The notes beneath the pieces are model-generated. The model was not told the origin of the DNA. It searched no databases and was given only the letters and a program-made list of their open reading frames with translations. From NCBI GenBank assembly GCA_026195275.1, contig JAPHQU010000003.1, positions 7,852 to 71,851 of the forward strand: a stretch of 64,000 bases of DNA, written 5' to 3'. The translations under genes and the position numbers were made by a program. The DNA is from Minisyncoccota bacterium (GTDB lineage: Bacteria > Patescibacteriota > Minisyncoccia > Phycocordibacterales > JABMNX01). Position 1 is the stretch's first letter. Each line of letters starts with the position of its first letter. Shown piece after piece: positions 3,613 to 59,705 of the stretch.

Positions 3613-6072
3613 ATGGCAGAAAAGAAGCCCAATAAAAACAAAGCGCCGGCGTACGATCAGATCATTCCGCAAGGGATTGGCGAGGAAATGCAGCAAGCAT
3701 ACCTTGACTATGCGATGACGGTCATTACTTCGCGCGCGCTCCCTGATGTACGCGACGGACTGAAGCCGGTCCACCGACGTATTCTCTTTACCATGCATCA
3801 AATGGGGCTCACTTCAAGTGCGCGTTTCCGTAAGTCGGCTGCGGTAGTTGGAGATGTGCTCGGTAAATTCCACCCACATGGTGATACTGCGGTCTACGAT
3901 GCGCTTGCAAAACTCGCGCAGGATTTCACTACCCGCTATCCGCTCATTATCGGTCAAGGCAACTTCGGTTCAGTCGATGGTGATGCTCCGGCGGCGATGC
4001 GTTACACCGAGGCGAAGATGGCAAAGCTCTCAGGTGAATACCTTCGGGACATTGAAAAAGAGACGGTAGAGTGGCGTGGCAACTATGACAACACGCGCAA
4101 GGAGCCAGTAGTCTTTCCTGCTGCCGCACCGGGGTTGCTCCTTAATGGCACACTTGGTATCGCGGTTGGTATGGCAACAAATATTCCGCCACACAATCTC
4201 ACTGAGGTTACTAACGCGACAGTGCATCTTATTGATAACCCAAAAGCGACCACCGAGGACCTCATGGAGTTTGTGAAGGGGCCAGACTTCCCAAGTGGTT
4301 GTGTCGCGTTTAATACGAAAGATATTCACCAGGCATACGCAAGCGGAAAGGGTGGTGTTGTGGTGCGTGGTGTTGCTGAAATCGTTGAAGACAAGAAGGG
4401 GAGTCCGCAAATCGTTATTTCATCAATACCGTATCGTGTGAACAAGGCGGATCTTATTACCAAGATCGCCGATTTGGTGCGCGATAAAAAAGTTGAGGGC
4501 ATCAAGGGGCTTCGCGATGAGTCAACTAAAGATACACGCGTGGTGATCGACCTCAAAGGAAGTTCACACCCACAAACCGTACTCAACACACTTTACAAAC
4601 ATACGCAGCTTGAAGAAACATTTCACTACAATATGGTTGCGCTCGTTGATGGGGTGCCGCAAACACTTTCGCTTAAGAGTATCCTCGAGTCGTTTATCAC
4701 ACACCGTAAGCAGGTAGTGACTCGCCGTACAGAGTTTGAACTCAAGAAAGCAGAGGCGCGCGAGCACATCTTGCTCGGCCTTAAGAAGGCACTTGATCAT
4801 ATTGATGCAATCATTAAGACGATTAAAAAGTCGAAAGACGCATCTGCGGCGCACACCGCACTCATGAAGGAGTTCAAACTTTCAGAACTTCAAGCAACCG
4901 CGATTCTCGAGATGCGCCTTCAAAAGTTGGCAGGACTCGAACGCAAAAAGATCGAAGACGAACTCAAAGAGGTCCAGCTACTTATCGAGGAGCTCAAAGA
5001 ATTACTCAAGAGTGAGAAAAAGATATTCGGTGTGGTTAAGGAGGAACTTAAGGAGCTTGCGAAGGTATACGGTGATGAGCGACGTACACAAATAATGACG
5101 CGTGGCGCAAAATCGCTGTCTGTTGAAGATCTTATCCCCGAGGAAGAGAGTGTCTTAGTTTTCACGAAAGGCGGCTATGTGAAGCGAACCAATCCGAATG
5201 AATATAAACGACAGAAACGCGGGGGTGTCGGTGTCGTCGACCTCAGTACCAAGGAAGAAGATGTGGTGACACGCTTCCTTACGACAAGCACACACAGTGA
5301 CCTGCTCTTCTTTACTGACAAAGGGAAGGTCTATCAGATCAAGATGTACGATATTCCTGAAGGACGACGTGCAACAAAAGGAAAGTCAATCATGAATTTC
5401 CTCTCAATCTCACAAGATGAGCATGTGACCTCTATCCTTGCTGTCCCCAAAGAGACCAAGAAAGACGACCTATCACTCCTGATGGTGACAAGGAACGGTG
5501 TAGCAAAGCGTGTTCCGGCTGAGAGTTTCTTTGATGTTCGTCGTAGTGGGCTTATCGCGATCACTCTTAAGAGCGATGACGTGTTGAAATCTGCCTCTTT
5601 TGTGAAAAACGGAGAGGGGGTGGTTGTTGTGACTCAAGAAGGACAATCAATCCGGTTTAAGAGCTCTGATATCCGCAAGATGGGTCGCACGGCAGCGGGA
5701 GTCATCGGGATAAAGCTCACTAAAGACGATAAGGTTGTTGGTGCTGAGGTGATCTGTGCGGAATACGAGAAGCCGGAATTGCTGGTCTTAACAGCGACTG
5801 GTTACGGGAAGAAGACTTCGCTCTCCGAGTACAAGGTACAAAAACGCGGCGGATCAGGTATCAAGACTGCTAAAGTAACCAATAAAACAGGAAATATTAT
5901 TGCGATGGCAGTAGTAGACGGTGCAGAAGGTGAGGTGGTCGCAGTATCTCAAAAAGGACAAGTAATCCGCACCGGTGTAGATGAGATTCCGTCACTTTCA
6001 CGTCAGACACAAGGTGTGCGCGTCATGAAACTTCGCGCAGGTGACCAAGTTGCTTCGATGGCGTTTGTATAA
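3613..6072 (+). CDS. gyrA: DNA gyrase subunit A
   Basis: AAMRYTEAKM active-site region and C-terminal beta-pinwheel repeats. 819 aa. Confidence 0.95.
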   Translation: MAEKKPNKNKAPAYDQIIPQGIGEEMQQAYLDYAMTVITSRALPDVRDGLKPVHRRILFTMHQMGLTSSARFRKSAAVVGDVLGKFHPHGDTAVYDALAKLAQDFTTRYPLIIGQGNFGSVDGDAPAAMRYTEAKMAKLSGEYLRDIEKETVEWRGNYDNTRKEPVVFPAAAPGLLLNGTLGIAVGMATNIPPHNLTEVTNATVHLIDNPKATTEDLMEFVKGPDFPSGCVAFNTKDIHQAYASGKGGVVVRGVAEIVEDKKGSPQIVISSIPYRVNKADLITKIADLVRDKKVEGIKGLRDESTKDTRVVIDLKGSSHPQTVLNTLYKHTQLEETFHYNMVALVDGVPQTLSLKSILESFITHRKQVVTRRTEFELKKAEAREHILLGLKKALDHIDAIIKTIKKSKDASAAHTALMKEFKLSELQATAILEMRLQKLAGLERKKIEDELKEVQLLIEELKELLKSEKKIFGVVKEELKELAKVYGDERRTQIMTRGAKSLSVEDLIPEEESVLVFTKGGYVKRTNPNEYKRQKRGGVGVVDLSTKEEDVVTRFLTTSTHSDLLFFTDKGKVYQIKMYDIPEGRRATKGKSIMNFLSISQDEHVTSILAVPKETKKDDLSLLMVTRNGVAKRVPAESFFDVRRSGLIAITLKSDDVLKSASFVKNGEGVVVVTQEGQSIRFKSSDIRKMGRTAAGVIGIKLTKDDKVVGAEVICAEYEKPELLVLTATGYGKKTSLSEYKVQKRGGSGIKTAKVTNKTGNIIAMAVVDGAEGEVVAVSQKGQVIRTGVDEIPSLSRQTQGVRVMKLRAGDQVASMAFV

Positions 6073-6210
6073 ACAAGCGGGGATATATGGAGTGCGTTAG
6101 AATTTCAACCCTTTATCTTGTTAAAGGGTGAGAAGCTATAGTCGCAAGGTATCGTTTCTGGGTGTTAGCCGCTGGACACTCTCGCGTGGTTTACTTTACA
6201 CTTACCATAT

Positions 6211-6744
6211 ATGCGTTTTGCTGATCCAACGGCCAACATTGAACAATTTCGACTTGACCCGGGAATGTCTGTCGCAGAACTCGGTGCGGGTATTGGTGCC
6301 TATTCTATCGCTGCCGCACGCGTCGTCGGTCGTCGGGGTGTAGTCTATGCAGTTGATATACAACAAGATCTTCTTGCGCGCATCGCACACACCGCTGATC
6401 GAGAGGGTCTTGAGAATGTCGAAGTGGTCTGGGGGGATATCGAAGCAGTTGGGGGTAGCAAACTCCTCGACGAGTCGATAGATGCTATTATAGTATCAAA
6501 CGTGCTTTTCCTTACAGAAGACAAAGACGGTGTCGCGAGAGAAGCGGTGCGCATCTTAAAGAAGAACGGGAAGGTGCTCGTTGTTGATTGGAAAGATTCG
6601 TTTGGTGGTCTCGGACCAAAGAGAGACTCTATCATCACTGCAAGTGAGACAAAAGAGCTCTTTGCCCGACATGGTCTTACGGTAGAGCGGGAGATTCAGG
6701 CGGGCGCACATCATTACGGCATTATTTTTAGACAAAAAAGATGA
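6211..6744 (+). CDS. class I SAM-dependent methyltransferase
   Basis: LGAGIGAYS glycine-rich SAM-binding motif. 177 aa. Confidence 0.65.
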   Translation: MRFADPTANIEQFRLDPGMSVAELGAGIGAYSIAAARVVGRRGVVYAVDIQQDLLARIAHTADREGLENVEVVWGDIEAVGGSKLLDESIDAIIVSNVLFLTEDKDGVAREAVRILKKNGKVLVVDWKDSFGGLGPKRDSIITASETKELFARHGLTVEREIQAGAHHYGIIFRQKR

Positions 6745-18006: not shown

Positions 18007-18027
18007 ACTGACACTTGTTTAAAAGAA

Positions 18028-18055
18028 AAACACCAACCCCGGGTTGGTGTTTTTG
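18028..18055. terminator. rho-independent terminator after clpB
   Basis: Hairpin caccaaccccgggttggtg followed by a T tract. Confidence 0.6.
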
Positions 18056-19394: not shown

Positions 19395-19465
19395 GGGCGA
19401 TTAGTTAAGTGGCATAACAAAGGTCTCCAAAACCTTAGTCGGGGGTTCGATTCCCTCATCGCCCG
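19395..19465 (+). tRNA. tRNA-Trp (anticodon CCA)
   Basis: Anticodon stem-loop AAGGT-CTCCAAA-ACCTT, T-loop GGTTCGATTCC. Confidence 0.8.
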
Positions 19466-19504: not shown

Positions 19505-19618
19505 GTCAGAATTGGATGTGATGAGGGAATCGGTGTCAGCTCACTAACCCATTTTCATACGATATATCGTATGAAAATGGGGGGGTGGCTCCTACCCGGA
19601 CTCGCTTCACTCCGTCCT

Positions 19619-19685: not shown

Positions 19686-20603
19686 TTACTCTTCCATGAA
19701 TTCGTCGACTGTCCTGAGCACTTCTTTTATATCTTGTGGCGAGAACCATTTGATATCTTTGTCTCGCTTGAACCACGTCCGTTGACGTTTTGCGTACTGC
19801 CAGATCTTTTGCTCAAGCTCTGCGAGCATCTCTTCTCTTGATATCAATCCTTGAAGGTGACGAGCCATGTAGCGGTACTCAAGTCCGAGCTGCTCCATGC
19901 GCTCCCACGAGACACCTTCTTCGTGAAGTCGTTCCGCTTCTTCAAGCATCCCCTCTTCCATGCGAGAGAGAAGCCGACGGTGAATCTTGTCTTTAAGCAC
20001 ATCATCGGGTAGATCGATACCAATCTTGAGGGCGCCATATGGGCAGTCCTGCTTTGGTCGGGGCACACTCCCAAGTGCTTCTGCTATCTCAATAGCGCGT
20101 ACGAGGCGCGACTTGTTACTCTGGTCGATCGTCTCTGCTCGCGCCTGGTCAAGCTCTAAGAGTCGCTCGAGAAGTTCCTCTTTGGAGAGCTTCTCAAGTA
20201 CTTCACGAAGCTTCATGTTCGGTTCAACTTCAGGGAGTGATGTCTCACCAAGGAACGCGGAGAGATAAAAGCCGGTACCACCCGCGATGATGGGAAGCTT
20301 GCTTCGCTCGAGTATGTCCACTACTGCGCTTTGCGCCATTTGAGTAAAATCTGCCGCAGTGAAGACACCTTTCGGGTCGGCGACATCGAGGAGGTGGTGC
20401 GGGACACCACGCATTTCATCTTCGGTGATCTTGCCTGAGCCAATATCGAGCCCTCGGTAGACTTGCCGTGAATCAACCGAGACGACTTCGCCATCAAATT
20501 GGAGCGCAATCTCGACCGCAAGGTCGCTCTTACCGGAAGCTGTTGGACCAACGACTGCAATGATCTTTGGACGCATTTCTTTTGTTGTCGTCTTTTTTGA
20601 CAT
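19686..20603 (-). CDS. miaA: tRNA dimethylallyltransferase
   Basis: P-loop GPTASGKS, then DSRQVYRGLDIGSGK and AKRQRTWF motifs. Confidence 0.9.
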   Translation of the reverse strand: MSKKTTTKEMRPKIIAVVGPTASGKSDLAVEIALQFDGEVVSVDSRQVYRGLDIGSGKITEDEMRGVPHHLLDVADPKGVFTAADFTQMAQSAVVDILERSKLPIIAGGTGFYLSAFLGETSLPEVEPNMKLREVLEKLSKEELLERLLELDQARAETIDQSNKSRLVRAIEIAEALGSVPRPKQDCPYGALKIGIDLPDDVLKDKIHRRLLSRMEEGMLEEAERLHEEGVSWERMEQLGLEYRYMARHLQGLISREEMLAELEQKIWQYAKRQRTWFKRDKDIKWFSPQDIKEVLRTVDEFMEE

Positions 20604-42063: not shown

Positions 42064-42160
42064 GGCAAGCCACATCCATGTGGTATTGGCTAAACGGAGT
42101 CTTCTGTAAGCCACAATAAACGCCAACCTTGGGTTGGCGTTTCTGCTATACTAAGTACCA

Positions 42161-48138: not shown

Positions 48139-48741
48139 ATGGATACCAAACTTATTACCATCAGTGTTCTTGTGGCAGTTGTCGTCAGTGCGGTTACGGC
48201 GACCATTGTCTCTCGCAACGGTTTTATTAGTAGTGATGACGCGCATATCAAGGCTTTTTATGCAGCCGAAGTTGCAGTGCATGTGAGCCCACATGGTCTC
48301 CGTAAACACATGGATAAAGGAGACGATACTTTTATTCTTGTTGATTTGCGCTCTCAAGAGGAATATGAGCGCGAGCACATCATCGGTGCGATTAACATAC
48401 CTGCGTACAAAGATCCGTATACTTCAGCATATGGTGATGTAGAGCGTATTGTAAATTCTTTCAGCGAACTCGATCAAGAAAAGGACATCATCGTCTATTG
48501 CTACAGTATTCCGTGTATGACCGGACGAAAGATCGGCAATATGCTTGCGGAGCACGGTATATATGTACAGCTTCTCAGTGTCGGGTGGAACGAATGGAGA
48601 TATCACTGGACACTCTGGAATCATGAGCACGAGTGGGATGAAACAGATGTCTCTGACTATGTCATCTCAGGGTCTGAGCCGGGAGTGCCGCAGATGCGCG
48701 ACGGATCATCCTGCACAATAGAGAACGAACTTGGTTGTTAG
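48139..48741 (+). CDS. rhodanese-domain protein with N-terminal TM anchor
   Basis: Rhodanese fold with active-site-loop Cys (YCYSIPCMTGRK). Confidence 0.7.
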   Translation: MDTKLITISVLVAVVVSAVTATIVSRNGFISSDDAHIKAFYAAEVAVHVSPHGLRKHMDKGDDTFILVDLRSQEEYEREHIIGAINIPAYKDPYTSAYGDVERIVNSFSELDQEKDIIVYCYSIPCMTGRKIGNMLAEHGIYVQLLSVGWNEWRYHWTLWNHEHEWDETDVSDYVISGSEPGVPQMRDGSSCTIENELGC

Positions 48742-48819
48742 TTCAGTGTGTAGGTATGGTGTTGGTGGAGTATTGTCGTATAATAGAAAGTACTTATTAA
48801 CCGCACCATATATGTACCC

Positions 48820-49299
48820 ATGCAAGAAATGAATCGAAACGAGAAGGTTGCGGTAGCTGTCGGTCTGGTAGCTGTCGCAATCATACTCTTTATTGGTATT
48901 GTTAACGCACTTATTTCTCGGTCTGCGCCGCAGGGTGTCGGGTCGACCATGCCTATGGAAGAAAATCTCCCTGGAGGATTGATCATTGAAGATGTTGTTG
49001 TTGGTGAAGGGGCTGAGGCGACACCCGGCTCTATTGTGGTTGCCCACTACACCGGAACGCTTGAAGACGGGACTGTGTTTGACAGCTCGGTGAGTCGGGG
49101 TGTGCCATTTAGTTTTATGCTCGGAGCAGGGCAGGTTATCCGTGGGTGGGATCTTGGAATTGCCGGTATGAAAGTCGGCGGCAAACGAAAGCTTATCATC
49201 CCCGCAGAGCTCGCATACGGTGAGCGTGCGATTGGTTCAATCCCAGCAAACTCCACACTCCTCTTTGAGGTTGAGCTCATTGATGTAAAAAGTCAGTAG
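48820..49299 (+). CDS. FKBP-type peptidyl-prolyl cis-trans isomerase, membrane-anchored
   Basis: N-terminal TM helix and an FKBP domain ([15 protein letters not shown]...[26 protein letters not shown]). Confidence 0.85.
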
Positions 49300-49301
49300 A
49301 T

Positions 49302-49517
49302 ATGAGTATTGAACAGACGCTCCTTGCTCTTGCCGCAGTGTTGGCGCTTGGTGGGACATATGCATGGGTGCAATTCGTCTTCTCGCTCTTAAGACATTCT
49401 TCCGAGCTTGAGGGTAAGCCACTTCGTTCAAAGTGCTTTATTGGGGCGGTTATCTTTACTCTCGGTTTTTTACTCGCGATTCACGCGCTTAGATCTTCTT
49501 GCGGCGTTGCATTGTAG
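49302..49517 (+). CDS. hypothetical small membrane protein
   Basis: 71 aa with two hydrophobic segments. Confidence 0.3.
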   Translation: MSIEQTLLALAAVLALGGTYAWVQFVFSLLRHSSELEGKPLRSKCFIGAVIFTLGFLLAIHALRSSCGVAL

Positions 49518-49544
49518 CTTCCCCACGAAAAACAACATTCATCA

Positions 49545-50744
49545 ATGTCAGCAATCTCTTTTCGTATCGACAAGAGGCTCCCGGGGCGCCTTGGGCGAGC
49601 GGGAGTCATTAAGACGCCACATGGCCACATTGAGACCCCTGCGTTCGTTGTTGTGGGCACGAAAGCAACAGTGAAAGCGCTTACTCCGGAGCAGCTGCTT
49701 GCAGATGTGGGCGCACAGGCGGTGCTTGCTAACACGTACCACCTCTACCTTGAGCCTGGTGAGGAGATCCTTAAGGAGGCCGGCGGATTACATGGATTCA
49801 TGAATTGGCAGGGTCCGTCATTCACTGACTCGGGTGGATTTCAGGTGTTTTCACTCGGTGCGGGACTTGGTCGAGGGTTGAGTAAGTTTGGTCCAACTAA
49901 TGCAGCTGCCATTGAGGATGTGCGGACCGAAACACGCGAGACCATGGTGAAGATTGATGAAGACGGTGTGTCGTTTCAGTCATATATTGACGGAAGCAGC
50001 CACCGCTTCACTCCCGAGCGTTCGATGGAGATACAGCACGCGATCGGCGCAGATATTATGTTTGCGTTTGACGAGTGTCCATCGCCGACAACAACAAAAG
50101 AATATCAGCGTGAAGCAATGGAGCGCACACACCGGTGGGCGGAGCGCAGTCTTCTGCACCATAAGGCACAGGGAGGAGATGCAGCGCAGGGGCTTTTTGG
50201 GATTGTCCAAGGTGGTGCATTTGAAGATCTGCGCAAAGAGAGCGCACAGACGCTTGCCAAGATGGACTTTGCTGGGTTTGGCATTGGTGGCTCATACACT
50301 AAAGAAGATTTTAAGGAGATCTTACCGGCAGTGAACAGCATTCTACCGGAGGAGAAACCGCGACACCTCCTGGGTATTGGTGAGCCGGCAGATCTCTTTG
50401 TAGGTATTGAGCACGGTATCGATACATTTGACTGTGTAGCACCAACACGTATCGCACGCAATGGCATGCTCTACACTAAAGACGGGCTTATTAATATACT
50501 CAACAGCAAATACCGAACCGACTTCTCTCTCATTGATCCTGATACACCAAGTTATACATCAAACCACTATACGCGTGCGTACCTGGCGCACCTCTTCCGC
50601 TCTAAAGAGATGCTCGGTGCGACGCTTGCGTCCATCCACAACCTTTATTTCATTGTTACGCTGGTGAAAGATATTCGTCAGTCAATCCTAGATGATAGAT
50701 TTGACAGATTCAGAGAAGAATTTTTGGGGAGATATCTTGGGTGA
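49545..50744 (+). CDS. tgt: queuine tRNA-ribosyltransferase
   Basis: TIM-barrel Tgt motifs (TDSGGFQ, active-site Asp region, Zn-binding CxCxxC...H). Confidence 0.9.
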   Translation: MSAISFRIDKRLPGRLGRAGVIKTPHGHIETPAFVVVGTKATVKALTPEQLLADVGAQAVLANTYHLYLEPGEEILKEAGGLHGFMNWQGPSFTDSGGFQVFSLGAGLGRGLSKFGPTNAAAIEDVRTETRETMVKIDEDGVSFQSYIDGSSHRFTPERSMEIQHAIGADIMFAFDECPSPTTTKEYQREAMERTHRWAERSLLHHKAQGGDAAQGLFGIVQGGAFEDLRKESAQTLAKMDFAGFGIGGSYTKEDFKEILPAVNSILPEEKPRHLLGIGEPADLFVGIEHGIDTFDCVAPTRIARNGMLYTKDGLINILNSKYRTDFSLIDPDTPSYTSNHYTRAYLAHLFRSKEMLGATLASIHNLYFIVTLVKDIRQSILDDRFDRFREEFLGRYLG

Positions 50745-50812
50745 TGCAGTGGTGAGTAACGAGAGCGCGGGTGGCAAGCATAGCCCCTCTCTGATATGCT
50801 CTTCGATAACAT

Positions 50813-52825
50813 ATGAAGAAGTTTAAACTCCACTCCCCATATAAACCCGCCGGAGATCAGCCGGGTGCGATCAAGACACTTACAGAGGGTGTAAAGAGAG
50901 GCGAACGACACCAGACGCTTTTAGGAGTGACCGGCTCGGGGAAGACCTTCGTGGTTGCGAGTGTTATTGAAGAGGTGCAAAAGCCGACCTTGGTCATCGC
51001 GCACAACAAGACCCTCGCCGCGCAGCTTGCGCAAGAGTATCGAGAGTTCTTCCCCGAGAATGCGGTACATTACTTCGTGTCGTATTACGACTACTACCAG
51101 CCGGAGGCATACGTGCCGACTTCTGATACTTATATTGAGAAAGAAGCACAGATCAACGAAGAAATTGATCGTCTACGTCACGCATCAACTCAAGCGCTCC
51201 TCACTCGCAATGATGTCATCATTGTTGCATCGGTTTCGTGTATTTATGGACTTGGTTCCCCCGAGGAGTATAAAAAAGTGCATCTTAATGTGGCTGTTGG
51301 CGAGAAGCTCTCGCGGGCTGACTTCATACGTAAACTCGTTGATATTTATTTCGAGCGCACCAACGCCGACCTTACCCCCGGCACCTTTCGTGCACTTGGG
51401 AACTATATCGAGATCATGCCAACGGGTGAGCGTGTTATTTATCGTATCACCATGACCCCGGAAGGAGTGACCGGCATCACGGTCATTGACGCGCTATCGC
51501 GGCAAATACTTGAGGAGAGAGAGAATCTTTTCATATTTCCGGCGAAGCACTACGTCACGCCCGAGCACGAACGCGCGCAGGCAATCGCAGACATTAAAAA
51601 GGAGCTTGCTTCGCAACTCAAGAAGTTTGAGCGAGAAGGGAAGGCGCTTGAAGCAGAACGCCTCAAACGACGTACTCAACAAGACCTTGCACTTATTCGT
51701 GAGATTGGATACTGCAACGGTATCGAGAATTATTCGCGGCACTTTGATCGCCGTAAGGAAGGTGAGCCGCCGTACACGTTGCTTGACTATTTCCCTCATA
51801 AAAAGGATGGTACGCCGGATTTCCTCACAGTGATCGATGAATCACACGTGACCATCCCGCAGATTGGTGGAATGTACGCAGGCGACCAGGCACGCAAACA
51901 GAACCTTGTTGCATATGGTTTTCGCTTACCATCAGCAAAGGACAACCGCCCGCTCAACTTCGAGGAATTTGAGAGGCGGGTCGGTGAAAGTCTTTACACT
52001 TCTGCAACCCCAGGTGTATATGAGATTGAGTGTTCAGGCAAACCAGTCGAGTTGGTCATCCGCCCGACCGGACTTGTTGATCCGGAGATTGAGGTAAAAC
52101 CAATTGTGGAGAAGGGTGCATACAAAGGACAAATCCAAGACTTTATCGCGGAGACAGAAAAGACGGTAAAGAGAGGCGGGCGTGTTTTAGTAACAACGCT
52201 GACTAAGAAGATGGCGGAAGACCTCAGTGAATTCTTGAAAGACAAGGATATTAAAGCAACATACATTCACAGCGATGTAAAAACCATCGAGCGTATCGAG
52301 ATACTTACTCAATTCCGTAAAGGGGAGTTCGATGTGCTTGTTGGGGTGAACCTGCTTCGCGAAGGACTTGATCTTCCCGAAGTGGAACTGGTCGGTATTC
52401 TCGATGCTGATAAAGAAGGATTTCTTCGCTCAGAGACCTCGCTCATCCAGACCATTGGTCGCGCAGCGCGCAATGTTCTCGGGCAAGTGATTCTCTACGC
52501 AGACGAGATGACCGGCTCTATGGAGCGAGCGATTGGAGAGACCAACCGCCGCCGCGAGAGGCAGCTCGCGTACAATAAAGAGCACGGTATCACACCACAG
52601 ACCATTAAGAAGCAAATCAAGGACATCACTGAGCAGTTGCGTACGGAGCACCAGAAGTCAGTCAGTACGCTACTTACGATTGATAAAGAGCTCTACAAGA
52701 AGAATCCAGAGAAGTTCATTAAGGAGAAACGCAGGCAAATGGAAAAAGCGGTCAAAGAACTCGATTTTGAGACAGCTGCAATCATCCGCGATGAGATCTA
52801 CATACTCGAAAGCAGAAGCAAATAA
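50813..52825 (+). CDS. uvrB: excinuclease ABC subunit B
   Basis: Helicase motifs (GVTGSGKT, DESH), beta-hairpin region, C-terminal UVR domain. 670 aa. Confidence 0.95.
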   Translation: MKKFKLHSPYKPAGDQPGAIKTLTEGVKRGERHQTLLGVTGSGKTFVVASVIEEVQKPTLVIAHNKTLAAQLAQEYREFFPENAVHYFVSYYDYYQPEAYVPTSDTYIEKEAQINEEIDRLRHASTQALLTRNDVIIVASVSCIYGLGSPEEYKKVHLNVAVGEKLSRADFIRKLVDIYFERTNADLTPGTFRALGNYIEIMPTGERVIYRITMTPEGVTGITVIDALSRQILEERENLFIFPAKHYVTPEHERAQAIADIKKELASQLKKFEREGKALEAERLKRRTQQDLALIREIGYCNGIENYSRHFDRRKEGEPPYTLLDYFPHKKDGTPDFLTVIDESHVTIPQIGGMYAGDQARKQNLVAYGFRLPSAKDNRPLNFEEFERRVGESLYTSATPGVYEIECSGKPVELVIRPTGLVDPEIEVKPIVEKGAYKGQIQDFIAETEKTVKRGGRVLVTTLTKKMAEDLSEFLKDKDIKATYIHSDVKTIERIEILTQFRKGEFDVLVGVNLLREGLDLPEVELVGILDADKEGFLRSETSLIQTIGRAARNVLGQVILYADEMTGSMERAIGETNRRRERQLAYNKEHGITPQTIKKQIKDITEQLRTEHQKSVSTLLTIDKELYKKNPEKFIKEKRRQMEKAVKELDFETAAIIRDEIYILESRSK

Positions 52826-52930
52826 CCATCACCTCTAACACTCAACATTCAATATCTAATACATAATACGCAACACATAACATCTAACACATACAACGCA
52901 TAACACCCAACACACATCACCCAACACACA

Positions 52931-52966
52931 TCACCGAACACTACCATATATGGTAGTGTTCGGTGA
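52931..52966. promoter_or_regulatory. 36-bp perfect palindrome tcaccgaacactaccatatatggtagtgttcggtga (candidate operator 1)
   Basis: Exact inverted repeat, verified base by base. Contains the shared 16-bp core CTACCATATATGGTAG. Confidence 0.6.
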
Positions 52967-53025
52967 TGAACAATAAAGCAATCAGGTAGAGGATAAAGCT
53001 TAAGTAAAACAAGTGCACAAAAAAA

Positions 53026-53059
53026 CAACCAATACTACCATATATGGTAGTATTGGTTG
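53026..53059. promoter_or_regulatory. 34-bp perfect palindrome caaccaatactaccatatatggtagtattggttg (candidate operator 2, abuts the regulator start codon)
   Basis: Exact inverted repeat with the same 16-bp core. Ends 3 nt before the ATG at 53063. Confidence 0.6.
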
Positions 53060-53062
53060 TAT

Positions 53063-53527
53063 ATGAAGAAACGCTCTAACGACCTCTCTGATTTTGAACG
53101 CATGCAGACGCTCGACATGCTCTATACAGCAACGTCGGGAGTGCGTGGACGAGATTCAATGAGACGTTTTTTGCGCGACCTATTGACTGAGAGTGAACGC
53201 ATTATGCTCGGACGGCGTATTTGGATCGCAAGATTATTATTACAAGATTGGACATATGATGAGATAGCGATTGAGCTAAAGGTTGGCTATGGAACAATAA
53301 GTCGTGTTGATAGGTGGCTTCGTGATCAGATGCCGGGCTATGAAGAGGCAATACAGGCACTTTACGAAGAAGATGCAAAGCGCGAAAAGGGACGTGCGGT
53401 TGCTATGAATCCTTTTGGACTCACTGCTCTTAAGAAGAAGTACCCGCTACACTTTCTCCTTTTTCCAGATCCGGTAAAAGTTAAAAAGGTAAAGAATTCA
53501 AGGAGAAGGGGAAAAAGAAAAGATTAG
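53063..53527 (+). CDS. TrpR/YerC-like helix-turn-helix DNA-binding protein
   Basis: LLTESERIMLGRRIWIARLLLQDWTYDEIAIELKVGYGTISRV matches the Trp-repressor-like (YerC/YecD) fold pattern. The ORF track extends to a TTG at 53057. Confidence 0.55.
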   Translation: MKKRSNDLSDFERMQTLDMLYTATSGVRGRDSMRRFLRDLLTESERIMLGRRIWIARLLLQDWTYDEIAIELKVGYGTISRVDRWLRDQMPGYEEAIQALYEEDAKREKGRAVAMNPFGLTALKKKYPLHFLLFPDPVKVKKVKNSRRRGKRKD

Positions 53528-53535
53528 ACAAAAAT

Positions 53536-53577
53536 AAAAAACCACCTTACTACCATATATGGTAGTAAGGTGGTTTT
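53536..53577. promoter_or_regulatory. 42-bp perfect palindrome aaaaaccaccttactaccatatatggtagtaaggtggttttt (candidate operator 3 / terminator)
   Basis: Exact inverted repeat with the same 16-bp core. It sits between the regulator stop and uvrA. Confidence 0.6.
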
Positions 53578-53661
53578 TATTTTGCTTTCATAATTCTATC
53601 TTCCTGATATACTCACTCTATATACCCCTATGCGCGCAAGCGTTGGGGCTTTCCGTGTGGT

Positions 53662-56286
53662 ATGACAGAAAACAACTCAAAAAAGAAGAATAAAGACGTT
53701 ATAGGCACCCACAAAATCTGTGTTCGAGGTGCCAAGACACACAACCTAAAGAACGTGGATATTGAGATGCCGCGCGATAAAATGGTGGTCTTTACCGGAG
53801 TCTCCGGCTCGGGTAAATCATCGCTCGCATTCGATACGATCTTTGCTGAAGGGCAGCGCAAATACGTTGAGTCACTCTCTTCGTATGCGCGACAGTTCCT
53901 TCGTCAGATGCAGAAGCCGGATGTTGAGGAGATTACCGGGCTTTCTCCCGCTATCTCAATTGATCAGAAGAGTCGCTCGAACAATCCGCGCTCAACTGTC
54001 GCGACCATTACCGAGATCTACGACTATCTGCGTATCCTCTACGCACGAATCGGCAAGCCATACTGTCTGCACCACGATGTCGAAATCAAGAGACTTTCAC
54101 ACGAAGAAGTGGTACAGGTGATTCTCTCAACAATCAAAAAGACTGACATTAAAAAAGGAAGCAAGAAAGTGCTCGGGGCGGAATATTCTGATCTGAAACT
54201 TCGTATTTACTCACCACTTGTGGTGGGGCGGAAGGGGGAATACTACCAACTCCTCTATGATCTTCTTGGTAAGGGCTACGAGCGCGTGCTCATCGACGGA
54301 TCGCTCAAGAGACTGCGCGAGCGCATAGAACTCAAGAAGACCAAGAAGCACGATATTGATGTGCTTGTTGATGAGATCTATGTGAGCGAGTTTACTGATG
54401 ACAAGAAGAGCGCACTCGAGCGGCTTTCTGAGGCTGTTGAGCGCGCCCTTGAGGAGAGCGATGGCTTGATCAAGATTGAAAGCCCCGATGGAGAGATGCG
54501 CACACTCTCAGCAAAGTTCATCTGTCCGGAGGATGGGAGCTCATTTCCTGAGGTTGAACCGCGACTTTTCTCATTCAACTCACCATATGGCGCGTGCTCA
54601 GAGTGTAATGGGCTCGGCACCAAGTATTTCTTTGGAAGTGAGGTGTGTGATTTGTGTCAGGGCGCACGCCTGCGCCCAGAAGCACTCCGTGTCTATCTTG
54701 GTGGCGACCCAAAGAGCGGCAAGAACATCGTTGACTTTACTGCACTCTCGATAGCGGATGCATATGAGTTTTTGGGGACCCTCAAGCTGACCAAGAAAGA
54801 TCAGGAGATCTCAAATGTGATTATCAAAGAGATTTTGAGTCGGTTGCAGTTTATGATTGACGTGGGCATTGAGTATCTCTCGCTTGATCGTCGGGCAAAT
54901 ACACTCTCTGGTGGAGAAGCGCAGCGCATCCGCCTCGCGAGCCAACTCGGCTCCGGTCTCGTCGGTGCGCTCTATGTGCTTGATGAGCCGACGATTGGGC
55001 TTCACCAGCGTGATAACGACCGCCTTATCAAGACATTGCTTAACTTGCGCGACTTGGGCAACACGATTGTTGTTGTTGAGCATGATGAAGATACAATCTA
55101 TGCGGCGGATTATATTGTTGATATCGGTCCGGGGGCAGGGGTTCATGGTGGAGAGATCGTTGTATCCGGGTGGCTTGATGAGCTTCTCACAGCAAAAACC
55201 AACAAGTCGGAGTCAGTCACGCTTGAGTATCTGCGTGGAGAGAGGGTGATTGAAGTGCCTTCCAGTCGCCGTGATGGAGAGAAAGGAAAGCTCATCGTGC
55301 GCGGTGGCAACATCTTTAATATTAAAAACATGAACGTGGATGTACCACTTGGGCGACTCTCGGTCGTGACGGGTGTTTCCGGTTCAGGTAAGTCGAGTTT
55401 TCTCTATGAGATTCTCTACAAAAACCTCCGTGCACGGTTTGATCGAAAGTATCGCTCAGCTCAGGTATATAACTGTTCGAAGTTTGACGGTACCGAGTAT
55501 CTCGGACGTTCAATCCTTATCGACCAGTCGCCGATCGGGCGTACACCGCGCTCAAACCCAGCGACATACACTGGTGCGTTTACCCATATCCGCGACCTCT
55601 TCGCCGCAACAAATGAAGCGCGTGCACGTGGTTGGAAAGCAGGGCGATTCTCATTCAACGTAAAAGGTGGGCGTTGCGAAGCATGTCAGGGGAACGGCAC
55701 GATTGCAGTGGAGATGCACTTCCTCCCGACAGTGCATGTATCGTGCGATGTTTGTGGTGGCAAGCGCTTCACCAAAGAGACGCTCGAGGTGAAATATAAA
55801 CACAAGAACATCTACGAGGTGCTCCAGATGACAATTGAAGAGGCGCTTGAATTCTTTAACGATATCCCGGCTATCTACGATCGACTCAAAACACTGAATG
55901 ACGTCGGGCTTGGCTACCTTGAGCTTGGACAGTCAGCAACCACTCTCTCAGGGGGTGAAGCGCAGCGTGTAAAAATCTCAAGTGAGCTCTACCGCCCGCA
56001 TACACAAAAAACAATTTACCTGCTCGACGAGCCAACAATCGGACTTCACTATGAGGATGTGAAGAAGCTTATTGAGATTCTCCAGGAACTCGTAAATAAA
56101 GGGAATACGGTTATCTTAATTGAGCACAGCATGGATATCATCAAGAGTGCCGATTATGTTATCGATATTGGGCCCGAAGGCGGTGTTGGTGGTGGTAAGG
56201 TGGTTGCAAAAGGAACTCCCGAGGAAGTGGCACAATCAAAAGAATCGTATACGGGAAAGTATTTAAAGCACGTACTTAAGAAATAA
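53662..56286 (+). CDS. uvrA: excinuclease ABC subunit A
   Basis: Tandem ABC ATPase modules (GVSGSGKSS; LSGGEAQR signature twice) and zinc-finger Cys clusters. 874 aa. Confidence 0.95.
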   Translation: MTENNSKKKNKDVIGTHKICVRGAKTHNLKNVDIEMPRDKMVVFTGVSGSGKSSLAFDTIFAEGQRKYVESLSSYARQFLRQMQKPDVEEITGLSPAISIDQKSRSNNPRSTVATITEIYDYLRILYARIGKPYCLHHDVEIKRLSHEEVVQVILSTIKKTDIKKGSKKVLGAEYSDLKLRIYSPLVVGRKGEYYQLLYDLLGKGYERVLIDGSLKRLRERIELKKTKKHDIDVLVDEIYVSEFTDDKKSALERLSEAVERALEESDGLIKIESPDGEMRTLSAKFICPEDGSSFPEVEPRLFSFNSPYGACSECNGLGTKYFFGSEVCDLCQGARLRPEALRVYLGGDPKSGKNIVDFTALSIADAYEFLGTLKLTKKDQEISNVIIKEILSRLQFMIDVGIEYLSLDRRANTLSGGEAQRIRLASQLGSGLVGALYVLDEPTIGLHQRDNDRLIKTLLNLRDLGNTIVVVEHDEDTIYAADYIVDIGPGAGVHGGEIVVSGWLDELLTAKTNKSESVTLEYLRGERVIEVPSSRRDGEKGKLIVRGGNIFNIKNMNVDVPLGRLSVVTGVSGSGKSSFLYEILYKNLRARFDRKYRSAQVYNCSKFDGTEYLGRSILIDQSPIGRTPRSNPATYTGAFTHIRDLFAATNEARARGWKAGRFSFNVKGGRCEACQGNGTIAVEMHFLPTVHVSCDVCGGKRFTKETLEVKYKHKNIYEVLQMTIEEALEFFNDIPAIYDRLKTLNDVGLGYLELGQSATTLSGGEAQRVKISSELYRPHTQKTIYLLDEPTIGLHYEDVKKLIEILQELVNKGNTVILIEHSMDIIKSADYVIDIGPEGGVGGGKVVAKGTPEEVAQSKESYTGKYLKHVLKK

Positions 56287-56376
56287 AGAGTGGTTGGACT
56301 TTTTTGTGAGTAGTGGTAATCTAAGACTTTAGAATGCTCTCATCTTTCTGGAATCAGGATTTAGGGGGGGTCTGTC

Positions 56377-56643
56377 ATGTTTGACCAGAAACAAACGTTT
56401 AACAACATTACCTTTTCGCAAGAAGAGGTGCTTAAAATGCTCAAGAAGCATTTTGGTGTAATAACCATAAAGGGGGTCTTTCTAGCGTCGTACCACTCAC
56501 AGTATGGGCCGGAGTCTAAGTCCCGTCCGCACAAAGAAGTAAGTTGTTGTATTAATCGGGAGTTGGCGTGTGCACGTAGGCTCGCACAGTTGCCGTATTT
56601 TGTTATGCGGACATACCAGCTCATTGCTGAAGAGGGGGAATAG
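56377..56643 (+). CDS. hypothetical small protein
   Basis: 88-aa ORF between uvrA and uvrC. No family recognised; it may not be real. Confidence 0.15.
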   Translation: MFDQKQTFNNITFSQEEVLKMLKKHFGVITIKGVFLASYHSQYGPESKSRPHKEVSCCINRELACARRLAQLPYFVMRTYQLIAEEGE

Positions 56644-56667
56644 AGACCCTTCGTCCGCCGCGGTCTC

Positions 56668-57927
56668 ATGACCGCGGCGACTTATTTATACATGCAGGTA
56701 AAAGATTTAAAAAAGAATGACTTACCAGATACACCTGGTGTGTACATCTTTCGTGGCACCAAAAAAGAGATACTTTACATCGGTAAGGCAACTAGTCTGC
56801 GCGACCGTGTGCGCAGTTATTTTGCCTCCGATATCGCAACCGTACGCAGTCCACTTATTGCACGTATGGTCGATGAAGCAAAGGATATTACCTGGGAGGA
56901 AACTGATTCGGTACTCGACGCGCTCATACTTGAGGCGAATTTGATTAAGAAACATCAGCCAATTTACAACTCGAGGGAGAAGGACGATAAGAGTTTTAAC
57001 TATGTGGTCATCACAAACGAAATGTTTCCGCGCGTGCTTTCAGTGCGCGGGAAGGATCTGCCAACTTTCAAAGTTGGACAGGTCGGAGTAAAAGCAATCT
57101 ATGGTCCCTACCCAAAAGGGGGTCAGTTCAAGGAAGCTATTAAAATCATCCGCAAGATCTTTCCATTCTTTGATACAAAGTTTCCAATTACCGACACGCT
57201 CACTAGAGCCCAAGAAAAGTCGGTGCGTTTCAATCAGTCAATCGGTGTCTACCCGGGGCGAGCGGGCGAGAAGCTTGATAAGAAAGGGTACGCGCGCACC
57301 GTGCGACATCTTAAGCTTTTCTTCGAGGGTAAGAAGAAGCAGCTCATCAAACAGCTTGAACGCGAGATGAAACAGTTTGCCAAGGAAGAGCGTTTTGAAG
57401 AGGCGACAGAGGTCAGGCGACAGCTTTTTGCACTCACACATATTCAGGATGTATCGCTCGTTAAGGAGGAGTATCAGCCGGTGCGTGCCGAGGCATTCCG
57501 CATTGAGGCATATGACGTGGCGCACACGTCAGGCAAGCAGGTAACGGGTGTTATGACTGTGATTGTAGACGGGGAAGCGCAGAAAGGTGAGTTTCGAAAG
57601 TTCAAAGTGTCGAGAGACGCCAACAATGACGTTGCTGCACTTCGCGAAGTTCTCTCGCGCCGACTCGGGCACAGTGAGTGGCGCTACCCGAAACTGATTG
57701 TTGTGGATGGCGGTGCTGCGCAAGTGAACATTGCAAAGAAAGTTCTTGCTGAATACGGATATGCAATACCGGTTGTTGGGGTGGTAAAGGACGAACATCA
57801 CCGTCCAAAGGGGTTTGTTGGCGATAAGGACTACATGAAGGAGTATGAGCGGGATATCGTCCTTGCTAACGCCGAAGCACATCGATTTTCAGTTTTGTAT
57901 CATAGGAAACTTCGTAGCGGACTCTAG
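56668..57927 (+). CDS. uvrC: excinuclease ABC subunit C, short form (GIY-YIG + UVR + RNase H-like endonuclease; no HhH)
   Basis: GIY-YIG motif (PGVYIFRG...ILYIGKA), UVR-like helix, C-terminal YDVAHTSG endonuclease domain. 419 aa. The start may be at 56692. Confidence 0.8.
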   Translation: MTAATYLYMQVKDLKKNDLPDTPGVYIFRGTKKEILYIGKATSLRDRVRSYFASDIATVRSPLIARMVDEAKDITWEETDSVLDALILEANLIKKHQPIYNSREKDDKSFNYVVITNEMFPRVLSVRGKDLPTFKVGQVGVKAIYGPYPKGGQFKEAIKIIRKIFPFFDTKFPITDTLTRAQEKSVRFNQSIGVYPGRAGEKLDKKGYARTVRHLKLFFEGKKKQLIKQLEREMKQFAKEERFEEATEVRRQLFALTHIQDVSLVKEEYQPVRAEAFRIEAYDVAHTSGKQVTGVMTVIVDGEAQKGEFRKFKVSRDANNDVAALREVLSRRLGHSEWRYPKLIVVDGGAAQVNIAKKVLAEYGYAIPVVGVVKDEHHRPKGFVGDKDYMKEYERDIVLANAEAHRFSVLYHRKLRSGL

Positions 57928-57967
57928 AGGTATTAATGCTCTGGTGGGAGCGTGATATACTTTTAGT

Positions 57968-58936
57968 ATGTCAAAATTACGGGTAGGGGTTCTTCGCGGT
58001 GGGCAATCGAGCGACTATGATATGTCGCTGAAGACGGGCGGGCGTGTGTTACAACATCTCTCAAAGGAGAAATACACCACGCACGATATCTACATTTCCC
58101 GTAACGGTGTGTGGCATATGCGTGGGTTTGAGGTGTCGCCGGAACGCGCACTAAAACAGGTTGACGTGGTCTTTAATGCGCTCCATGGTGAGTACGGTGA
58201 AGACGGGGTGGTACAAAAACTTCTCGACACCTTCGGTGTGCCGTACACCGGCTCTGGAGCTCTCCCTTCAGCGCTTGCGATGAGTAAATTGCGCGCCAAG
58301 GAAATCGTCTCTCGACTCGGTGTACGCACACCCATGACTCGTTTAGTCGAACACAATTCTGATCTTCGTTCGTGCGCACTCGAGATATTCCGCACCTTCC
58401 CATTTCCGCTTCTTATTAAACCTGTTCGTGGTGGATCATCACGAGGCATCGTCTTTGTCGGTTCTTTTTATGAACTCGAACAGGCTCTCGAATACACATT
58501 TGAATCTCTGGGAGAGATAATGATCGAAGAATATGTTCGTGGGAAAGAGGTTACTAGTGGTGTAATTAAAAATTTTCGAGGTGAAGATCACTACACGCTT
58601 TTGCCGATTGAAATTGAGTTAGAAGGAGAGAGGCCATATCTTGATACCGAGGCAAAACACAGCGGTCTCTATCGCGCACATTGCCCGGGAGGCCTCTCGG
58701 CGGAGGAGAAACTGCGTGTTCGTGAGGCAACACGATTAGTGCACGATGCATTAGGGCTTGGTCAGTATTCTCGTTCAGACTTCATATGTACTCCGCGTGG
58801 TATCTATTTTCTTGAGGCGAATACTCAGCCCGACCTACGGGAAGAATCCCTCGTCAACCGCGCACTTTCTGAAGTGGGGTGTTCTTTTTCTGAGTTTGTT
58901 GAACACACGATCAATCTTGCGGTAGAAGGAAAGTAG
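57968..58936 (+). CDS. ddl: D-alanine--D-alanine ligase
   Basis: ATP-grasp fold. N-terminal VGVLRGGQSSDYDMSL and ALHGEYGEDG motifs. Confidence 0.9.
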   Translation: MSKLRVGVLRGGQSSDYDMSLKTGGRVLQHLSKEKYTTHDIYISRNGVWHMRGFEVSPERALKQVDVVFNALHGEYGEDGVVQKLLDTFGVPYTGSGALPSALAMSKLRAKEIVSRLGVRTPMTRLVEHNSDLRSCALEIFRTFPFPLLIKPVRGGSSRGIVFVGSFYELEQALEYTFESLGEIMIEEYVRGKEVTSGVIKNFRGEDHYTLLPIEIELEGERPYLDTEAKHSGLYRAHCPGGLSAEEKLRVREATRLVHDALGLGQYSRSDFICTPRGIYFLEANTQPDLREESLVNRALSEVGCSFSEFVEHTINLAVEGK

Positions 58937-59627: not shown

Positions 59628-59676
59628 TCCTTTGAAGATAACCACAGGCAATGTTTAGTAGAAATATGTAGAAAAT

Positions 59677-59705
59677 AAACACCAACCCGGGTTGGTGTTT
59701 ATTTT
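59677..59705 (+). terminator. terminator hairpin (same stem motif as at 18031)
   Basis: aaacaccaacccgggttggtgttt followed by a T tract. Confidence 0.5.

Follow-up and report, generated by a model that had tools for sequence, protein, structure and literature searches.

In this study, we analysed a stretch of 64,000 nucleotides from a Minisyncoccota bacterium (contig JAPHQU010000003.1 of assembly GCA_026195275.1; hereafter the window), in which a gene for a TrpR-like protein lies among the excision-repair genes uvrB, uvrA and uvrC and is accompanied by three perfect palindromes, P1, P2 and P3. Our analyses suggested, with a probability of roughly 0.7, that these palindromes are the protein's own binding sites, that protein and sites form a self-contained cassette occurring across the Patescibacteria, and that further sites are dispersed in related genomes in a manner resembling repetitive extragenic palindromic (REP) sequences. 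The parts of this reading best supported by the sequences are the putative binding of the palindromes by the protein and the assignment of P2 as its candidate auto-operator.

The three palindromes are exact inverted repeats with no loop (Table 1). The preliminary description of this DNA had given their lengths as 36, 34 and 42 bp; the last figure was correct, and the first two fell short of the 40 and 36 bp found here. The 16-bp core that it had described as common to all three was borne out, and the exact shared core extends to an 18-mer, ACTACCATATATGGTAGT. Outside the 18-mer the arms differ among P1, P2 and P3, yet each palindrome is fully self-complementary. With up to three mismatches allowed, the 16-bp core occurs at three places in 64 kb, namely P1–P3, against an expectation of 0.11, and 0 of 100 shuffled sequences reached three; exact half-sites were absent from the window besides those of P1–P3. 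A chance origin of the palindromes was ruled out by this shuffle control together with the presence of the same architecture in about 60 loci.

The placement of the palindromes relative to the genes also agreed with the earlier account, save for one nucleotide. P1 lies downstream of uvrB, 104 nt past its stop codon, with its centre 114 nt 5' of the ATG of the TrpR-like gene, and is read as a putative extra upstream binding site. The final base of P2 stands 2 nt (not 3 nt, as had been stated) ahead of the ATG at 53063, and the palindrome is centred 20 nt 5' of that codon. The right half of P2, TG-G-TAGTAT (53045-53053), resembles the TGnTAnnnT boxes of ddl and uvrB, and P2 may thus combine the role of putative auto-operator with that of a promoter. 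P3, between the TrpR-like gene and uvrA, starts 10 nt past the TrpR-like stop codon, ends 84 nt ahead of the uvrA ATG and can be extended to 52 bp at 92% pairing. Single-strand folding of P1–P3 was predicted at -16 to -21 kcal/mol, and P1 as a single-stranded DNA hairpin reached -21.4 kcal/mol (z = -10.8). The terminator pattern, a G+C-containing stem followed by a T-tract, is found on both strands of P3, on the minus strand alone of P2 and on neither strand of P1, whose + strand has no T-tract and is hence not terminator-like. P3 is accordingly a site with two possible roles, read as a putative downstream binding site and also looking like a bidirectional intrinsic terminator.

The same arrangement was recovered well beyond the window. 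We examined 80 orthologous metagenomic loci and three further loci obtained via exact protein look-up, in all of which the gene calls were crude. In about 50 of the roughly 60 loci with enough flanking sequence, a perfect palindrome with no loop has its centre 15-21 nt 5' of the ATG, and these same loci carry a second palindrome past the stop codon whose core is identical over at least 14 bp. The order palindrome, ATG, gene and same-core palindrome is a conserved cassette of the Patescibacteria. A paralog in locus L002, 24% identical, shows the same layout around a palindrome of its own. The fetched DNA as a whole holds 308 perfect palindromes whose arms measure 9 nt or more, and 264 of these are centred on ATATAT. 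Additional upstream copies, about 60-95 bp apart, occur in L012, L014, L028, L078 and L128 as well as in the window, where P1 is such a copy, and in some loci short arrays of 3-5 sites stand next to the TrpR-like gene. Three orthologous loci, L017 (200-260 and 690-760), L039 and L045, have no zero-loop palindromes and carry the same half-sites with a spacer, for example AGTATGATA-N8-TATCATACT; because these few orthologs have spaced half-sites, site geometry appears to vary within the family.

Some genomes hold more than one such pair. L004 and L063 belong to a single contig (Ga0207952_1000032) that encodes several TrpR-like paralogs whose palindromes all differ: TATCTTATAAGATA adjoins UDG, Ogt and PD-(D/E)XK genes, and CACCCATATATGGGTG lies within the uvr cluster. 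L002 has TrpR-like paralogs at 4430-4846 and 6001-6432. The palindrome with core TACGATATATCGTA belongs to a distant paralog that is devoid of the YPLHF tail described below.

The connection between protein and palindrome was drawn from their covariation. The core varies between loci (ACTACCATA, ACTATCATA, ACTATGATA, AGTTTGATA, TTTATCTTA and others), and the two copies within a locus agree. Mutual information was calculated over 51 non-redundant loci with 2000 permutations, a statistic that ignores phylogeny, and the pairs with the highest values all involve the helix-turn-helix motif. Specifically, Asp at residue 77 accompanies TG at bases -5/-4 in 18 of 18 loci, Asn accompanies TC in 11 of 16, and Gly, Ala or Thr is found with CC; residues 76 and 80 covary with base -8, and residues 66 and 69 with base -9. 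The strongest pairs were matched in 0 of 2000 permutations, and the pair of A69 with base -9 in two of 2000. Among the eight genes of an independent set that have ACTACCATA on their flanks, residue 77 is Gly, Ala, Ser, Cys or Asn and never Asp. By the offset of the structural alignment, residues 76, 77 and 80 align with Ile79, Ala80 and Thr83 of E. coli TrpR, which we take to be operator-contacting positions that determine specificity. Since the core covaries with the helix-turn-helix residues that set operator specificity in TrpR, there is a strong inference that the palindromes are the binding sites of the TrpR-like protein.

Palindrome symmetry itself is under some form of maintenance, as judged from two features. 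Comparison of the closely related L002 and L004 shows a C-to-T substitution in the left arm together with the compensating G-to-A substitution in the right, and the palindrome stays perfect. In addition, the palindromes end abruptly: pairing resumes past the first mismatch in 8 of 308 cases, and no extension appears when G-T pairs are tolerated. The compensatory change and the abrupt ends together argue for active maintenance at the DNA level, for example by dimer binding plus hairpin-templated correction, and not for RNA structure.

The protein is of the TrpR/YerC type, as had been proposed, and the gene (53063-53527) encodes 154 aa, one fewer than the 155 given earlier. It matched Pfam Trp_repressor (PF01371) with 59.4 bits against a cut-off of 27, over residues 15-99 and profile positions 1-86 of 88; the other Pfam match was a weak one to HTH_23. 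Profile matches in the PDB were to the YerC-like structures 3frw, 3kor and 3g1c and covered residues 10-104 only, with E. coli TrpR weaker. The AlphaFold2 model (mean confidence, pLDDT, 74) is all-helical, with helices at 10-24, 30-40, 43-60, 65-72, 76-88 and 93-115, and its best Foldseek matches were 3frw, 3kor and 1tro at probabilities of 0.99-1.0 and TM-scores, normalised to the target, of 0.57-0.67. The conserved C-terminal tail LKKKYPLHFLLFPxP, in which KYPLHFLLFP is invariant in our alignments A1 and A4, lies in an extension that had no PDB match. Because the scores fall under the NCBIfam cut-offs for both TrpR (TIGR01321, 25.1 bits against 67.25) and YerC/YecD (TIGR02531, 36.7 bits against 42.2), the protein represents a distinct subfamily of the TrpR fold of the type found in the candidate phyla radiation (CPR). 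A metagenome-assembled genome (MAG) of a 'Candidatus Pacebacteria bacterium' encodes an identical protein (100% identity). More than 1,200 relatives, nearly all of them unnamed or labelled YerC or Trp-family, were found in Patescibacteria, and the subfamily forms 946 clusters at 50% identity (E up to 0.001); identity across CPR classes is 55-70%. Neither a catalytic domain (HUH or DDE) was recognised in the protein by Pfam and NCBIfam nor a LexA-like S24 self-cleaving peptidase domain by Pfam, and trp or aro genes adjoined none of the sites examined. An association with phages or defence systems was set aside, there being no relatives in viral contigs and no match in PHROGs or PADLOC.

The 18-mer is widely dispersed in related genomes. 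Exact matches in a species-representative genome collection gave 100 stretches, where about 9 would be expected for a random 18-mer from the size of the collection. Of 80 titled stretches, 12 came from other phyla and the remainder from Patescibacteria-type or unclassified MAGs. The TrpR-like gene stands beside the 18-mer in only 9 of the 100 stretches. Related genomes hold from at least 4 to 13 exact copies each, with at least 12 in the MAG G04_MAG_00032, at least 10 in one Saccharibacteria MAG and four in a complete 993-kb Kaiserbacteria chromosome. The intergenic sites away from the gene lie in 10 convergent, 1 divergent and 16 tandem spacers (baseline 73, 65 and 261), and many of them have A- and T-tracts and long arms. 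The 18-mer also occurs once each outside the CPR, in Agathobacter/Lachnospiraceae (L086, L093, L108, L114, L135, L142), Bacillota (L090, L118) and Treponema (L119), where the copies are mostly intergenic; these matches were set aside as unrelated, a TrpR-like open reading frame (ORF) being absent nearby, and they may be the operator of another factor or due to chance.

Nearly half of the sites (44 of 95) lie inside ORFs. Their hosts include genes for an HhH-GPD glycosylase, TrpRS/TyrRS, DnaG, PheT, a reverse transcriptase, a Mur ligase, Dus, ArgRS, enolase, UvrB and MiaA. The reading frame through the site is always open, giving TTIYGS in 12 unrelated protein clusters and LPYMVV in four, and the frame with a stop codon was used in none. 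In DnaG the palindrome is an 8-aa insertion relative to orthologs, located in a linker, and in UvrB the whole 36-bp palindrome is a 12-aa insertion; in PheT and the Mur ligase the palindrome replaces native sequence and the length is unchanged. Two UvrB genes, those of L060 and L137, carry in-frame palindromes in the same loop with different cores, each of the type of its own genome, and in the UvrB of L060 the native coding sequence supplies one arm, of which the second arm is an inverted copy. The RVT_1 reverse-transcriptase genes of three CPR genomes (L100, L127, L141) have the palindrome in frame as LPYMVV.

One palindrome of the window belongs with these observations. The orphan palindrome (Table 1) has the architecture of P1–P3 around another core, and this 14-mer core equals that around the TrpR-like genes of L002 (paralog 1), L022 and L037. 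No second TrpR-like ORF that could account for it was found in the 64-kb window, and we take it to be a dispersed site that belongs to a second class of specificity; its position between convergent genes fits the dispersed class.

On these grounds we propose that the protein would act as a dimer, presumed by analogy with TrpR, with P1–P3 as its high-affinity sites. A dimer at P2 would occlude the promoter or the transcription start and repress the protein's own gene; autoregulation is the natural reading because one palindromic site abuts the start codon, and it is likely the function of the P2 copy. P3, which is terminator-like on either strand, would end transcription and offer a second binding site about 500 bp away, P1 would serve as an auxiliary upstream site, and cooperative binding or looping between the three is plausible. 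The cassette would travel with its gene, independent of the uvr genes. Because core copies lie mainly at gene 3' ends, in convergent spacers and in frame in ORFs, the protein-palindrome pair seems to behave more like a pair of REPs and their REP-associated tyrosine transposase (RAYT), or like a site-specific chromosomal binder, than like a promoter regulon. The dispersed sites could be roadblocks or termination aids, silenced promoter-like elements, or selfish DNA.

Several points weigh against this proposal. The promoter assignment of P2 draws on a weak resemblance to consensus, and a purely autoregulatory protein would serve no purpose. The covariation is uncorrected for kinship, though the varied residues before Asp suggest several lineages. 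From copy to copy the outer arms vary and yet are perfect, which dimer binding to an operator of 18-20 bp would not require; they need an additional explanation, such as a hairpin or cruciform function or template-switch correction. Finally, the 18-mer core shows no dispersal within the window itself.

The preliminary description had read the protein as an autoregulated, non-LexA repressor whose palindromes co-regulate uvrB, uvrA and uvrC in an alternative DNA-damage regulon. Its autoregulatory part is retained here as the natural reading, in keeping with the cassette of about 60 loci and the covariation; control of nucleotide excision repair did not hold up, and we consider such a regulon distinctly unlikely. 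There is a real association to account for. The three uvr genes are neighbours on one strand, as described, with ddl next; P3 stands 5' of uvrA at the short distance given above; and uvr genes are nearby in the window, L054, L057, L060 and L063, five loci of one sub-clade in which the position and orientation of the gene vary. The order is uvrB-gene-uvrA in the window, uvrC-ddl-gene in L057 and tgt-gene-x-uvrB in L060; in L063 the gene stands between uvrA and uvrC, and there as in L054 it is divergent from uvrC with a palindrome between. In addition, the UvrB genes of L060 and L137 have their own genome's palindrome in frame, the HhH-GPD glycosylase and DnaG contain sites, and another paralog group adjoins UDG, Ogt-like and PD-(D/E)XK genes (L002, L004 and L067). 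On the other side, the window has neither sites nor half-sites 5' of uvrB or uvrC, P1 being downstream of uvrB, and most orthologs have unrelated housekeeping genes as neighbours. The commonest families among 139 neighbouring ORFs of orthologs are Obg, SecA, MurB, RpoD and DnaG, not repair proteins. The earlier account had itself counted a core scattered through the genome against its regulon, and the 18-mer is dispersed at gene 3' ends and in ORFs of related genomes, where it sits in tRNA synthetases, the Mur ligase, enolase and Dus and avoids divergent promoter regions (1 of 11 convergent or divergent sites). A search with E. coli LexA (tblastn) agreed with the earlier statement that lexA is absent, in that no homologue was found within the 64-kb window, the rest of the genome being outside that scope; the TrpR-like protein itself has no LexA-like self-cleavage domain. 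Given the diverse neighbours of the orthologs and the lack of sites ahead of uvrB and uvrC within the window, a general excision-repair or DNA-damage regulon is not supported. A local association with repair genes in one sub-clade is possible, and the neighbouring uvrB and uvrA would represent lineage-specific synteny with at most a local effect on uvrA.

Three other explanations concern the palindromes themselves. They might be selfish, self-propagating elements like REPs or Rickettsia palindromic elements (RPEs), with the TrpR-like protein as a RAYT-like cognate and regulation as a secondary matter. This is a possibility we hold tentatively, and it overlaps with the reading as cassette-borne binding sites, the two being compatible. 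It would accommodate the gene's own repeat on both flanks, the repeat type particular to each paralog, the many dispersed copies in G04_MAG_00032 and the Saccharibacteria MAG, the preference for gene 3' ends and convergent spacers, and the in-frame insertions into unrelated essential genes (8 aa in the DnaG linker, 12 codons in UvrB), including one UvrB loop struck by two independent events with different cores; these features agree with those reported for REPs (PMC3733652). It is harder to square with a protein that has no recognisable catalytic domain, with the small number of exact sites (4 in the complete 993-kb chromosome and 3 in the window) and with the PheT and Mur ligase sites, which replace sequence at constant length. 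The 55-70% identity across CPR classes suggests a host function, and relatives are missing from viral contigs, PHROGs and PADLOC. Rather improbable, in our judgement, is a protein that acts at the level of the chromosome, either as a roadblock or termination enforcer at convergent gene ends or as an organiser like ParB, Noc or MatP, whose sites need not be promoters. Dispersed palindromic sites within ORFs and at 3' ends would suit such a binder. The parS and Noc sites are likewise found within ORFs and at 3' ends. The intergenic copies with A- and T-tracts and long arms that look like bidirectional terminators, and the arrays of 3-5 sites adjoining the gene, would also be expected of it; several paralogs of different specificity in one genome and the quick turnover of cores between lineages both sit poorly with one system serving the whole chromosome.

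The simplest view, that the palindromes are mere intrinsic terminators or RNA hairpins unconnected with the adjacent protein, was rejected on account of the abrupt arm ends and the helix-turn-helix covariation, and we give it very little credence. The terminator-like pattern of P3 on both strands and of P2 on the minus strand, and the very stable predicted hairpins, would agree with it. The coding strand of P1 and P2, however, carries no T-tract, P2 ends 2 nt ahead of a start codon, the centre of the palindrome is itself palindromic, the arms stop abruptly (pairing resumes in 8 of 308, with no G-T-tolerant extension), and the core covaries with the helix-turn-helix residues of the neighbouring protein. 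With some reserve, we also entertain a REPtron-like system of the Patescibacteria whose partner is a TrpR-fold helix-turn-helix protein instead of a transposase. Each paralog would recognise perfect, ATATAT-centred palindromes of its own, which would stand on the flanks of the gene, accumulate as bidirectional terminators and enter, or arise in, the reading frame of essential genes (for instance DnaG, UvrB, tRNA synthetases and Mur ligase). Hairpin-templated correction would keep the arms symmetrical and protein binding would keep the core, and the protein might silence, stabilise or help to propagate the palindromes.

Comparison with known systems places the binding-site cassette between several of them. 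E. coli TrpR shares the fold and the Pfam family, has a palindromic site of about 18-20 bp and autoregulates trpR through a palindromic operator; here one putative site overlaps the start region of its own gene. Unlike TrpR, the protein described here is extended at its C terminus by 50 aa that include an invariant YPLHFLLFP, no trp genes lie nearby, a second site with an identical core stands downstream of the gene, and the palindromes are perfect, reach 40-54 bp and have copies dispersed inside ORFs. B. subtilis YerC is predicted to be the histidine repressor HisR, with 20-bp palindromic motifs of lineage-specific consensus in Firmicutes; HisR (YerC/YecD) proteins have fewer than 100 residues, with sites located ahead of the his and transport operons (PMC9413887). 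This group is the closest to the TrpR-like protein by sequence and structure and also has lineage-specific palindromes. Its HisR role does not transfer to the TrpR-like protein, which has 154 aa and whose sites flank its own gene or are found within ORFs and at 3' ends, with no his genes involved.

For the dispersed sites, the REP/RAYT system offers the closest analogy. There, cognate repeats flank a transposase gene; most repeats lie 3' of genes, and some fall within genes, notably those for replication and repair (PMC3733652). In the same way the TrpR-like gene is flanked by a matched palindromic repeat that is also dispersed in the genome. In contrast to a REPtron, the partner is a TrpR-like helix-turn-helix protein and not an IS200/IS605-type HUH/Y1 tyrosine transposase, the palindromes are fully paired, have no unpaired GTAG tag and vary in core (for example GATAGT or CAAACT), the exact copies number from at least 4 to 13 per genome instead of tens to thousands, and mobility is only putative. 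The RPEs are likewise palindromic DNA in frame within essential genes, in loops and linkers, of reduced genomes. They are about 100-150 bp long, and to our knowledge no cognate protein is known for them; the inserts described here measure 18-48 bp, and a cognate binding protein can be proposed. With LexA and the SOS system the sole common feature is that a palindromic site stands close to repair genes, as the fold is different, no S24 peptidase domain is present and the sites are not at repair-gene promoters.

The remaining features of the neighbourhood are as follows (Table 1). The genes follow one another on the + strand in the order uvrB, TrpR-like gene, uvrA, short uvrC and ddl. The UvrC has GIY-YIG, UVR and RNase H-like domains, and no Pfam match to a C-terminal HhH region was obtained. 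Two copies of the direct repeat CCCAACACACATCAC stand in the spacer of about 100 nt between uvrB and P1, and the spacers that separate five upstream palindromes in L012 (positions 60-420) are likewise strand-asymmetric, being CT-rich and purine-poor. None of the 8 confident genes at 48139-58936 has a Shine-Dalgarno sequence, and TG-A-TATACT and TG-A-TATGCT boxes lie 6-12 nt 5' of the ddl and uvrB ATG codons, which suggests that mRNAs of the window are leaderless or have very short leaders. A second family of perfect or near-perfect palindromes (18026-18054, 59672-59705 and 42118-42142) has A- and T-tracts on its flanks and the common core CACCAACCC(C)GGGTTGGTG; its members look like bidirectional intrinsic terminators that share sequence.

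Table 1. Palindromes and genes discussed in the text, in positions of the window.
Feature	Position	Strand	Remarks
tRNA gene	19395-19465	+	upstream of the orphan palindrome
Orphan 34-bp perfect palindrome	19548-19581		CCCATTTTCATACGATATATCGTATGAAAATGGG; core TACGATATATCGTA; between the tRNA gene and the 3' end of the miaA-like gene
miaA-like gene	19695-20573	-	
uvrB	50813-52825	+	
Spacer, AC-rich, nearly without G	52826-52928	+	between uvrB stop codon and P1; read from sequence
P1, 40-bp perfect palindrome	52929-52968		zero loop; arms CATCACCGAACACTACCATA and TATGGTAGTGTTCGGTGATG
P2, 36-bp perfect palindrome	53025-53060		zero loop; arms ACAACCAATACTACCATA and TATGGTAGTATTGGTTGT
TrpR-like gene, 154 aa	53063-53527	+	Pfam Trp_repressor PF01371
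P3, 42-bp perfect palindrome	53537-53578		zero loop; arms AAAAACCACCTTACTACCATA and TATGGTAGTAAGGTGGTTTTT
uvrA, 874 aa	53662-56286	+	
uvrC, short, 419 aa	56668-57927	+	

In the literature on YerC/TrpR in the CPR and on palindromes and the SOS response in Patescibacteria, we found no description of this cassette, and a site-specific binder of the TrpR family whose sites behave like REPs would be a variant undescribed in the literature found. For annotation, these genes should not be labelled 'trp operon repressor', and their neighbours should not be taken as a regulon. CPR/Patescibacteria have tiny genomes with very few regulators, and gene control in them is almost unstudied; here a widespread subfamily comes with an unusually clear, self-documenting DNA target. 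The protein-palindrome pairs make up a natural data set for the recognition code of the TrpR fold, as with Asp77 and TG at -5/-4. Furthermore, the in-frame palindromes in essential genes would be the second case, after Rickettsia, of palindromic DNA colonising the coding sequence of reduced genomes, and, unlike in the Rickettsia case, a candidate cognate protein is present.

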